Translations under genes and position numbers: made by a program
Assembly: GCF_003790525.1 (NCBI RefSeq)
Contig: NZ_CP033635.1
DNA: 64,000 nucleotides
From: Escherichia coli
GTDB lineage: Bacteria; Pseudomonadota; Gammaproteobacteria; Enterobacterales; Enterobacteriaceae
Direction: 5' to 3' (one strand)
Notes under the pieces: generated by a model
The model's input: only the letters and a program-made list of their open reading frames with translations
Database searches by the model: none
Told to the model about the DNA's origin: nothing
In this document: in pieces, positions 47,923 through 51,034 of the stretch
Layout of the letters: each line of letters starts with the position of its first letter
How positions within the stretch are numbered: the first letter of the stretch is position 1

Positions 47923-49410
47923 TTATCCGACGCTGTGTTCAAGACTGATGGCGAGGAGTTTTTGTGCTTCAACGGCAAATTCCAGCGGCAGTTCTGAGAA
48001 CACGTCTTTGCAGAAACCGTTAACAATCATCGAGATGGCGTCTTCTTCGCTGATCCCGCGTTGCAGGCAGTAAAACAGTTGATCTTCACCAATACGTGAT
48101 GTCGTTGCCTCGTGCTCCAGTTGTGCGCTGTTATTGCGACATTCGACATACGGGAAGGTATGCGCCCCACAATTAGCGCCAATCAGCATTGAGTCGCACT
48201 GAGTGAAATTGCGCGCATTGGTTGCCGTCGGCATGATTTTCACTAAGCCGCGATAACTGTTCTGACTATGTCCGGCAGAGACCCCTTTCGAGATAATGGT
48301 CGATTTGGTGTTTTTACCGATGTGGATCATCTTGGTGCCGGTATCCGCTTGCTGATGACCGCTGGTCAGTGCCACTGAGTAAAACTCACCAATGGAGTTA
48401 TCGCCGCGCAAAATGCAACTGGGATATTTCCACGTAATCGCTGACCCGGTTTCTGATTGCGTCCATGACATTTTGCTGTTTTCGCCTTCGCACAAAGCAC
48501 GCTTGGTGACGAAGTTGAGAATACCGCCGGTGTTGTTATCGCCAGGGAACCAGTTTTGTACCGTGGAATATTTCACCTCGGCGTTTTTATGGATGATGAC
48601 TTCAACCACCGCCGCGTGTAACTGATAGCTGTCACGCACCGGAGCGGAACAGCCTTCAATGTAGCTGACATAGCTGTCTTCGTCGGCCACCAGAATGGTG
48701 CGCTCAAACTGCCCTGTTTTTTCCGCGTTAATGCGAAAATAGGTGGAAAGTTCCATCGGGCAGCGCACGCCTTTAGGCACATAAATAAACGTTCCGTCAG
48801 AGGCTACCGCCGCATTAAGTGCGGCAAAGAAGTTGTCATTCCCCGGCACCACGGTGCCGAGATATTTACGCACAAGTTCCGGGTGATCGTGGATCGCCTC
48901 GCCAAAGGAACAGAAAATAATTCCCTGCTCCGCCAGTTTTTCACGATAAGTGGTGGCAACCGAAACAGAGTCGAAAATGGCATCCACCGCCACCTCTTTG
49001 CCTTCCCGCACGGGAACGCCCAACTGCTCAAACGCCGCCTCCACCTCTTTACTTAAAAAGGCGTTCGCACCAGTTTGCTGCACCGCGCCGGGTTCAGACG
49101 CGCAGTTGTCGTCACAATTACCGCACGATGGTGCTGAGTAGTAGCTGTAATCCTGATAATTCAGCTTGTCGTAGTGCGCTTTCAACCAGTGCGGTTCTTC
49201 CATCTCCAGCCATGCGCGATAGGCGTTGAGACGAAACTCCAGCATCCACTCCGGCTCATTACGCTTCGCCGAAATTGCGCGCACCACCTCTTCGTTTATC
49301 CCCTTTGCCAGCTCATCGGTGGCTAACTGGGTGAAGAATCCTTCTTTATAATTCAGCGGGCCGCCGGTCCAGGTTTTGACATCGTCAGTTGCTTCAGTAT
49401 TACGAGACAT
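47923..49410 (-). CDS. sufB: Fe-S cluster scaffold SufB
   Basis: ORF 47923..49449; start placed at ATG 49410 ([26 protein letters not shown]...), 495 aa. Confidence 0.95.
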
Positions 49411-49418
49411 AGTACCGC

Positions 49419-49787
49419 CTATACCCCAAAGCTTTCGCCACAGCCACATTCATTCTGGGCTTTAGGGTTGTGAAATTTGAATATCTGATTAAGTCCTTCA
49501 CGAACGAAATCGACTTCCGTGCCATCAATAAACGGCATCGCTTGCAGCGGGACAAACAGCTTCGCACCGTCGTGTTCAAACAGCAGATCGTCTTTGTCCG
49601 GCTCGCTAACACTGTCGAGCACATAGCCAAAGCCCGCGCAGCCCGTTTGCTTCACGCCTAAGCGCACGCCGACCATACCCGGCTGCTTTGCCACCAGCTC
49701 GCGGATGTGGACAGCGGCTGCGGGTGTCAGCGTTAAGCCCTGCCAGGCGAAATCCTGTGGATTAAAGGTTCCTGAATGCATGTCCAT
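49419..49787 (-). CDS. sufA: A-type Fe-S carrier SufA
   Basis: 122 aa [37 protein letters not shown]..., C-terminal CGCGESF. Confidence 0.95.
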
Positions 49788-49831
49788 CGATTTACCTCAC
49801 TTCATCGCTTTCAGCGTATAACAGCATGTTA

Positions 49832-49848
49832 GTGATAATGATTATCAG
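49832..49848. promoter_or_regulatory. Fur box (GTGATAATGATTATCAG) in the sufA promoter
   Basis: strong match to Fur consensus GATAATGATAATCATTATC, 45-60 bp upstream of sufA start. Confidence 0.65.
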
Positions 49849-50079
49849 TTCAACCCAGCAAACGCAGGGGCTTTACCGTAAAACATGCTTTTTTCCTGCT
49901 TTTAATAAGCATAGACCCTGATGTGTGGGTTAACAGGCACGCTAAGAATTAGGTATCTCATTGTTAGATAATGATTATTATCTAAGGAGCATTAAGGCTG
50001 TGATGAAAAAGAAAAAGTTGTATTGAAAATGACTATTTAAGAGATAGGTAAAAAAGTGCAGCGTTCAGAAATAAGAAAA

Positions 50080-50110
50080 CCCTTAAGTCTGTGCGACACA
50101 GGCTTAAGGG
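50080..50110 (-). terminator. long hairpin with minus-strand U-tract; possible 3-prime end of sRNA RydB or other minus-strand transcript
   Basis: cccttaag(tctgtg-cga-cacagg)cttaaggg; on the minus strand the stem is followed by TTTTCTTATTTCT. Confidence 0.45.
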
Positions 50111-50335
50111 TTTCTACCCCATCCGGCGCTTATCTCCGGCACTCTCAGTGGCTTAGCTCTTGAAGGGGCGATAAGAATAATCTCATAAAGCTAACCCGCC
50201 GTTTTAACACAAACTGCGATTAGTATTATTTTTGAACAATATCAGGCGGGTAGATAAGCAGTATTAAGAAGGCCATCGAACCTGGACGGAGATTAATCCA
50301 GGTCGATATGGCGAACTTGCGGCATTAAGTCAGGA

Positions 50336-50524
50336 TCAATGCACGCCCAGACGCCAGGCAAAGTAGATTTCTTCTTTTAATTCAGCAGAAGAGAGAGTAA
50401 GCAGGTCAGCAAATTCAAGTTCTAGTTGTTTCAGACGTTTGAGATATTGGGCAGGTGAAAGATTGCTCTGGTCACGGCGTAAAAATTCAATGGCCAGCTG
50501 GGTGGGATCAAGTTGAGTAGACAT
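50336..50524 (-). CDS. ydiH: uncharacterised 62-aa protein
   Basis: ORF 50336..50605; start placed at ATG 50524 with GAGGA RBS (MSTQLDPTQLAIEFLRRDQSNLSPAQYLKRLKQLELEF...), 62 aa. Confidence 0.8.
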   Translation of the reverse strand: MSTQLDPTQLAIEFLRRDQSNLSPAQYLKRLKQLELEFADLLTLSSAELKEEIYFAWRLGVH

Positions 50525-50623
50525 AGCATCCTCGCTTTTAGACAAGACCTGCACAGTATACCACCGTTTACTGTGCAGATAATGACCAAAAGCAATATGC
50601 GTCACACTTTTCTGGTGACAACG

Positions 50624-51034
50624 TCACAAAATGGCGGTCGTCAATCGTGACGAACAGCACAAACGCCCTTTCTCATCGAAGATTTCAATCTGCCAGACCT
50701 GGTGACGCGAACCGAGATGCAACGGTTTGCATACGCCGCGCACCCGCCCTTCTCGTGCCGAGCGGACGTGGTTAGCATTGATTTCCAGACCAACCACCTT
50801 TTGCTCACCTTCGGTACATAAATAACCGGCAACGGAACCGATACTTTCGGCCAGCACCACAGACGCGCCTCCATGCAGCAACCCGAAAGGCTGCTTTGTC
50901 CGGGAGTCTACTGGCATTGTCGCTTCAAGGGTGTCATCACCAATATGTTCAAAGCGAATATCCAGCAACCCCACCATGTTTCCTTCACCCATAGCATTCA
51001 ATGCTTCCAGGGTGATTTTTCGTTTCCATATCAT
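50624..51034 (-). CDS. menI: hotdog-fold thioesterase (1,4-dihydroxy-2-naphthoyl-CoA hydrolase)
   Basis: 136 aa ORF MIWKRKITLEALNAMGEGNMVGLLDIRFEHIGDD...; start overlaps ydiJ stop (ATGA). Confidence 0.9.
   Translation of the reverse strand: MIWKRKITLEALNAMGEGNMVGLLDIRFEHIGDDTLEATMPVDSRTKQPFGLLHGGASVVLAESIGSVAGYLCTEGEQKVVGLEINANHVRSAREGRVRGVCKPLHLGSRHQVWQIEIFDEKGRLCCSSRLTTAIL

Follow-up and report, generated by a model that had tools for sequence, protein, structure and literature searches.

The AT-rich palindrome upstream of sufA at 49965..49984 of the window (the whole 64,000-nucleotide stretch of Escherichia coli DNA analysed here) is probably the 5′ arm of the sufA IHF site, known as ORE-II; we put the probability of this reading at about 0.6. 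The initial annotation had described the palindrome as a Fur-like element that could be a second Fur site, the IHF site or a promoter element of a divergent transcript, and of these options we favour the IHF site, as the palindrome adjoins a conserved IHF core and fills its AT-rich 5′ arm. The reading rests on a conserved WATCAANNNNTTR element at the aligned position, with the palindrome starting 18 bp 5′ of this core, on the conservation across genera of only the core-side half of the palindrome, and on an AT-rich 5′ arm that is a family-wide property. We do not regard the palindrome as a canonical Fur operator, because its half-sites are spaced by 15 bp, it has no walker at ±6 bp and it lies at −154, and because its likeness to a Fur site is nearly confined to Escherichia and is polymorphic within E. 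coli. Most likely, it is an ordinary part of a well-studied, already known promoter; judged by its sequence, it would be a weak extra Fur site at best. Its Fur-like look most likely reflects a lineage-specific state of the AT-rich arm in Escherichia rather than a separately selected operator, and would then carry no major regulatory role. The suf promoter is a textbook example of signal integration by OxyR, IHF, IscR, Fur and NsrR, and recognising a second 'Fur box' in it as the arm of an IHF site guards against the mis-annotation of a second Fur operator.

The sufA control region and its proximal Fur box

The sequence is the sufA–rydB–ydiH–menI region of E. coli, with sufB, sufA, rydB, ydiH and menI all on the − strand here. 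Positions 49400..50700 are 100% identical to many E. coli chromosomes in which sufA is annotated, including that of SMS-3-5, and are found in 5421 of 5426 complete E. coli genomes. On its upstream side, the sufA control region ends at the small RNA gene rydB; bounded by sufA and the rydB terminator, it measures about 290 bp (from 49788 to this terminator). We set the transcription start site (TSS) at 49819 because two kinds of published offset agree on it. Table S6 of a 2023 ChIP-seq study (PMC10219339) gives the distance of the sufA Fur site as −53 relative to the start codon and −21 relative to the TSS. The Fur-site mutation (Fur*) made in the sufA promoter by the Kiley laboratory, −26ATA−24, falls exactly on 49845..49843 when the TSS is at 49819. 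The published work gives a single sufA TSS, 32 nt from the ATG. The features of the region, in window coordinates, are:

49419..49787, − strand: sufA coding sequence, first gene of sufABCDSE (open reading frame; K-12 annotation; 100% identity to sufA-annotated genomes)
49819, − strand: sufA TSS, literature-based, 32 nt 5′ of the ATG; zero for all −n positions
49831..49826, − strand: putative sufA −10, TAACAT
49833..49847, no strand assigned: proximal Fur box TGATAATGATTATCA, a 15-bp 7-1-7 Fur motif with 0 mismatches
49853..49848, − strand: putative sufA −35, TTGAAC
49954..49966, − strand: IHF core element TAACAATGAGATA, a degenerate WATCAANNNNTTR, at −135..−147, located by orthologue alignment
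49965..49984, no strand assigned: distal palindrome TAGATAAT-GATT-ATTATCTA, at −146..−165, Fur-like
49974, no strand assigned: common E. coli polymorphism within the palindrome; + strand A here (T in sufA sense), G in K-12
50022..50058, − strand: OxyR site (ORE-I), at −203..−239, a conserved block at the position reported for OxyR
about 50077..50113, − strand: rydB terminator hairpin, read from the sequence
50109..50169, − strand: rydB small RNA gene (Rfam RF00118, 81.6 bits, E = 1.9e-19; annotated in K-12)

The promoter-proximal Fur box had been called correctly. The string GTGATAATGATTATCAG is read at 49832..49848, as annotated, and the perfect 7-1-7 motif within it sits between the putative sufA −35 and −10, at −21 from the TSS, from where it would exert the iron control of suf. 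With at most 2 mismatches, the motif is present 5′ of sufA in 80 of 80 other Enterobacteriaceae species, and its offset is equal in 77 of them. For quantitative scoring, we rebuilt a 19-bp Fur matrix (9-1-9) from 20 footprinted or gel-shifted K-12 Fur sites, with site coordinates from Chen et al. 2007 (PMC2189734) and with the sufA and ydhY sites left out. Leave-one-out scores for gpmA, ryhB and fepB were 26.6, 25.7 and 16.6 bits, against published information values of 27.4, 25.2 and 16.7. The proximal box, flanked by two walkers at ±6 bp, received exactly the value published by Chen et al. 2007 for the sufA Fur cluster (21.3 bits, 3 sites, 31 bp). A scan for the 19-bp Fur consensus with at most 3 mismatches returned the proximal box as its sole match and missed the distal palindrome; taken alone, such a strict consensus would wrongly dismiss the distal element, since the weight matrix scores a substantial match there. 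One species departs from the usual position of the proximal box: in Intestinirhabdus alba, the sufA Fur box TGATAATAATTATCA scores 25.9 bits and is found at −151, not at about −54, relative to the annotated match start, which points to inserted DNA, to another start codon or to a leader that has been rearranged.

The distal palindrome as a probable part of the IHF site

The second annotated string, TAGATAATGATTATTATCTA, is also found in its place, at 49965..49984. It lies 178–197 bp 5′ of the sufA ATG, in agreement with the distance of about 180 bp first given, and between the conserved OxyR motif and the promoter, that is, in the upstream region where IHF and OxyR sites had been expected. It consists of perfect 8-bp inverted arms, TAGATAAT and ATTATCTA, around a 4-bp spacer, with 18 of its 20 positions symmetric and one perfect GATAAT half-site in each arm; when the local AT-rich intergenic DNA is subjected to dinucleotide shuffling, 3.6% of the shuffles contain a perfect 8-bp inverted repeat with a spacer of at most 6 bp. 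The description of this element as even more palindromic than the proximal box is right as regards arm length (8 vs 7 bp), but the symmetry is not that of a Fur dimer site: the half-site bases G49967 and C49982 are 15 bp apart, not 12 as in a Fur box, and the perfect half-sites are separated by 4 bp, not by 1 bp as tGATAAT and ATTATCa are in the 7-1-7 motif. Being spaced 3 bp too wide, the two half-sites cannot both be read by one dimer, and either register has one degenerate half. When single-stranded, the palindrome folds as a hairpin (−4.8 kcal/mol, z = −2.5). A role as a cruciform or RNA hairpin was considered and rejected, given an all-A/T stem of this energy and no match to an RNA family.

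Locating the IHF core required an alignment of orthologues, because a scan for the IHF consensus with at most 1 mismatch gave no site in the sufA upstream region, and its window-wide count was at chance level. In an alignment of 81 upstream regions, WATCAANNNNTTR is perfect at the aligned position in 46 and has at most 1 mismatch in 70, and the CAA and one T of the TTR are near-invariant; the E. coli core, TAACAATGAGATA, has 2 mismatches. In IHF–DNA complexes, about 18 bp 5′ of the core are contacted, and these are typically A/T-rich. Since these 18 bp correspond here to 49984..49967, the palindrome covers the IHF arm and continues into the core by 2 bp; it starts exactly 18 bp 5′ of the core. 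The arm is A/T at 15 of 18 positions in the window and at 13–15 across Escherichia, and the median in 75 other species is 14 of 18. Conservation in the same alignment is confined to one side of the palindrome, with 1–4/10 for the distal half TAGATAAT and 7–9/10 for the core-proximal CATTAT. We also considered whether a higher AT content of the arm makes up for the degenerate core in Escherichia, and rejected this idea, as the arm's AT content is ordinary for the family.

The surrounding architecture is equally regular. The CTAT-N7-ATAG-N7-CAAT block (50022..50047), which lies within ORE-I, is strongly conserved in 81 species, and in almost all of 80 species the position relative to the ATG is about −244 for the OxyR motif, −173 for the IHF core and −53 for the Fur box, a constant spacing that fits a loop-forming architecture. 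At the sufA promoter, Lee et al. 2004 reportedly found an IHF footprint at −156..−126 and OxyR at −236..−196. The core identified here is centred at −141, which we take to be the centre of that IHF footprint as well. Reviews and later papers place OxyR at ORE-I, IHF at ORE-II, where it bends the DNA, and Fur/IscR at ORE-III, and according to the reviews it is the bend at ORE-II that lets OxyR reach RNA polymerase. Papers that cite Lee et al. 2004 credit them with the IHF footprint and with IHF-dependent activation of sufA in K-12.

Combining these elements, IHF would cover about 35 bp, roughly 49951..49985, with its core TAACAATGAGATA on the sufA strand (49966..49954) and the 18 bp upstream of it wrapping around the body of the protein. 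The resulting sharp bend would bring RNA polymerase at the promoter (TSS 49819) within reach of OxyR, bound at 50022..50058, about 60 bp further upstream. In this model, the binding of IHF and OxyR, the bending and the activation come from the literature, and the motifs, conservation, scores and polymorphism were computed here. Several observations count against assigning the palindrome to the IHF arm: its Fur score of 16.1 bits equals or exceeds that of some footprinted Fur sites, six Escherichia lineages all keep at least 12 Fur bits, and the E. coli IHF core is degenerate, with its 2 mismatches.

Two other sequence patterns in the region deserve a record of their own. The block AGGGTCTATGCTTATTAAAAGC (sufA sense), at 49896..49920 or about −77..−101, is essentially invariant in the aligned upstream DNA of 81 of 81 Enterobacteriaceae; it exceeds the OxyR and IHF sites in conservation and lies outside the three described ORE elements. 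We know of no factor for this block, which by eye has a weak NsrR-like 11-1-11 resemblance. In several Enterobacter, Lelliottia and Klebsiella genomes, the IHF region aligned to 49950..49985 reads GAAATGCATTATTAATCAATGCATTGAAC, in which ATGCATT is directly repeated 14 bp apart, flanking or overlapping the IHF core; the repeat may be the site of a second factor or an extended IHF consensus.

Resemblance to a Fur site and the competing readings

The distal element does resemble a Fur site beyond chance. It scores 16.1 bits at centre 49973, and another walker, of 8.7 bits, lies 3 bp off at 49976. The element is the third-best match in 64 kb, after the proximal box and the ydhY cluster; scores of at least 16.1 bits have P = 0.002 in local shuffles. 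By the simpler 7-1-7 motif, it matches with 2 mismatches at 49966..49980, where 3 matches as good are present in 64 kb against 0.20 expected, and 0.3–0.4% of the local dinucleotide shuffles contain an equally good one. Footprinted sites scored with the same matrix reach 16.6 (fepB), 16.3 (fecA), 15.9 (fepA-fes), 9.1 (tonB) and 7.9 bits (fur). According to Chen et al. 2007, proven sites in their 24-site model all have at least 10.1 bits, and 13 of 13 predicted sites that were tested shifted. Going by such scores, binding of Fur to the distal element in vitro is plausible.

The ydhY match, TGATATTTATTATCA at 40126..40140 (centre 40133), has 1 mismatch to the 7-1-7 motif and 19.8 bits. Chen et al. 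2007 predict a Fur cluster at this place (ydhY −255, 19.9 bits, v2 coordinate 1752756), which they give without an experimental reference.

The strongest competitor of the IHF reading builds on this resemblance and holds that the palindrome is a low-affinity auxiliary Fur operator which arose in Escherichia on the IHF arm; we consider this possible, if unlikely. Here, Fe2+-Fur sitting at about −154 would act as a competitor of IHF or make the DNA stiffer, so that activation by OxyR and IHF would be possible only once Fur leaves, which would place an iron gate on peroxide induction, and the A/G difference at 49974 would tune that gate. Apart from the scores and shuffles just given, it draws support from the pair of walkers 3 bp apart, which is like the weakly footprinted fhuF2 cluster, and from the taxonomic distribution: the distal position scores 12.2–16.1 bits in every one of six Escherichia lineages, whereas the median of 75 other species is 3.3 bits and only 1 of these reaches at least 12 bits. 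It may also draw support from a third Fur-like match, of 12.5 bits, that overlaps the OxyR site. This match, ATTGAAAATGACTATTTAA at 50022..50040 (centre 50031), lies on the ATAG-N7-CAAT half of the site, and its Fur-likeness probably mirrors the conservation of the OxyR site, because several genera show weaker forms of it (9–11 bits) at an equal offset.

Architecture and position argue against such an operator. In Chen et al. 2007, 11 of 11 footprinted sites of the initial model have overlapping sites at 6-bp spacing; around the distal element, no partner Fur site occurs at ±6 bp, as 49973 and 49976 are the only positions with walkers above 0 bits, and the half-sites are not spaced as a single dimer would need. 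According to Chen et al. 2007, Fur sites are tightly concentrated around promoter elements (−35/−10/TSS), and the distal element, centred at −154, is far from the sufA −35 and −10 and overlaps neither these nor the TSS. Most of 412 genomic sites of at least 10 bits are non-regulatory, and many ChIP-bound sites are without effect on transcription. Furthermore, the accessible literature reports no second Fur site at sufA, and the published Fur site tables for this gene (Chen et al. 2007; PMC10219339) hold only the −53/−21 site.

Conservation and polymorphism point the same way. The conserved IHF flank by itself already amounts to 9–11 Fur bits in several genera, and it is an extra GATAAT in the distal half that lifts the score to 12–16 bits in Escherichia. 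Within this genus, Fur-critical bases drift, giving GATAAG in E. albertii and GGTAAT in E. whittamii, and the dyad symmetry is lost without compensating changes in E. albertii, E. whittamii and Escherichia sp. E1V33. Fur-relevant bases vary within E. coli as well. Counting allele-specific 55-mers against 5426 complete E. coli genomes, we found the window allele of 49974 (A) in 2143 and the K-12 allele (G) in 3271, that is, about 40% vs 60%; the window allele is carried by the O157:H7 and SMS-3-5 genomes among the matches listed. The site corresponds to about 1,764,573 of K-12 NC_000913.3, and its alignment column is unconstrained across Enterobacteriaceae. The K-12 allele lowers the Fur score by 2.6 bits, from 16.1 to 13.5, and both alleles thus stay above a cut-off set at the weakest proven site (about 10 bits). 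To our knowledge, the experiments on the sufA promoter all used K-12, a strain with the less Fur-like allele. A third allele (+ strand C) is seen in one genome of the species set that is labelled E. coli, and must be rare.

The suggestion of a second Fur site is therefore in keeping with the score, which is like that of weak footprinted sites, but architecture, position, conservation and a common polymorphism oppose a selected operator. A more specific version, in which the Escherichia IHF arm would be a working low-affinity Fur operator competing with IHF over about 20 bp and the 49974 alleles would set lineage thresholds, strikes us as doubtful. If Fur does bind the distal element, DNA bending would be the step at which iron gates the peroxide response, and this gate would vary between strains. 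What remains of interest is modest: a Fur-like score that is specific to Escherichia, in an element where K-12 and about 40% of E. coli genomes have different bases at one position.

It is very improbable that the palindrome instead provides the −10 of a second promoter, be it co-directional with sufA or divergent. For the co-directional version, one − strand promoter-like match does use GATAAT as its −10 (49982..49977), with ATCACA as −35 (50004..49999) and a 16-bp spacer, and Chen et al. 2007 note an overlap with predicted σ70 promoters for 303 of 363 Fur clusters, as Fur motifs resemble −10 boxes; this match, however, is only 9/12, its −35 is not conserved, the region holds 3 promoter-like sites against 1.7 ± 1.4 in shuffles, and the sufA TSS in published work is a single one. 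The divergent promoter element proposed at the outset is not borne out, as the + strand has no promoter-like site near the palindrome and no gene or RNA family annotated or detected downstream. By eye, the distal palindrome also compares poorly with ArcA, NsrR and H-NS motifs.

Comparison with known systems

Against the two common models of the Fur box, the distal palindrome is similar in content and different in layout. It resembles the 7-1-7 box (Baichoo & Helmann) in carrying GATAAT in each arm and matching with 2 mismatches, and the 9-1-9 M9 model (Chen et al. 2007) in its 16.1 bits under a 9-1-9 matrix; it differs in half-sites that are 3 bp too wide, in having no 6-bp overlap, in its position at −154 and in being unconserved beyond Escherichia. 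Among individual Fur sites, the nearest relative is fhuF2 of the fhuF promoter, a low-affinity cluster of 14.6 + 9.3 bits that is weakly protected by purified Fur (Chen et al. 2007). Both are weaker clusters near a strong one and are of similar predicted strength, but fhuF2 has been footprinted with Fur and the distal sufA element is a match by sequence. In addition, fhuF2 lies at most about 60 bp from its strong cluster and near the TSS, whereas the distal sufA element is 133 bp away from the proximal box, inside the site of another protein.

The comparison with IHF sites is closer. ORE-II, the sufA IHF site (Lee, Yeo & Roe 2004, Mol Microbiol 51:1745), is the identical locus and DNA. Relative to its reported footprint (−156..−126), the palindrome overlaps by 11 bp and runs 9 bp further upstream, and the window carries the non-K-12 allele at 49974. 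In the crystal structure of IHF on the H′ site of λ attP (Rice et al. 1996), about 18 bp are reportedly contacted, with an A/T-only stretch before the core WATCAANNNNTTR. The λ site has a pure A-tract and a perfect core and the sufA site a mixed A/T arm (TAATAA) and a core with 2 mismatches, but the 18-bp 5′ arm of H′ has its counterpart at sufA in 49984..49967.
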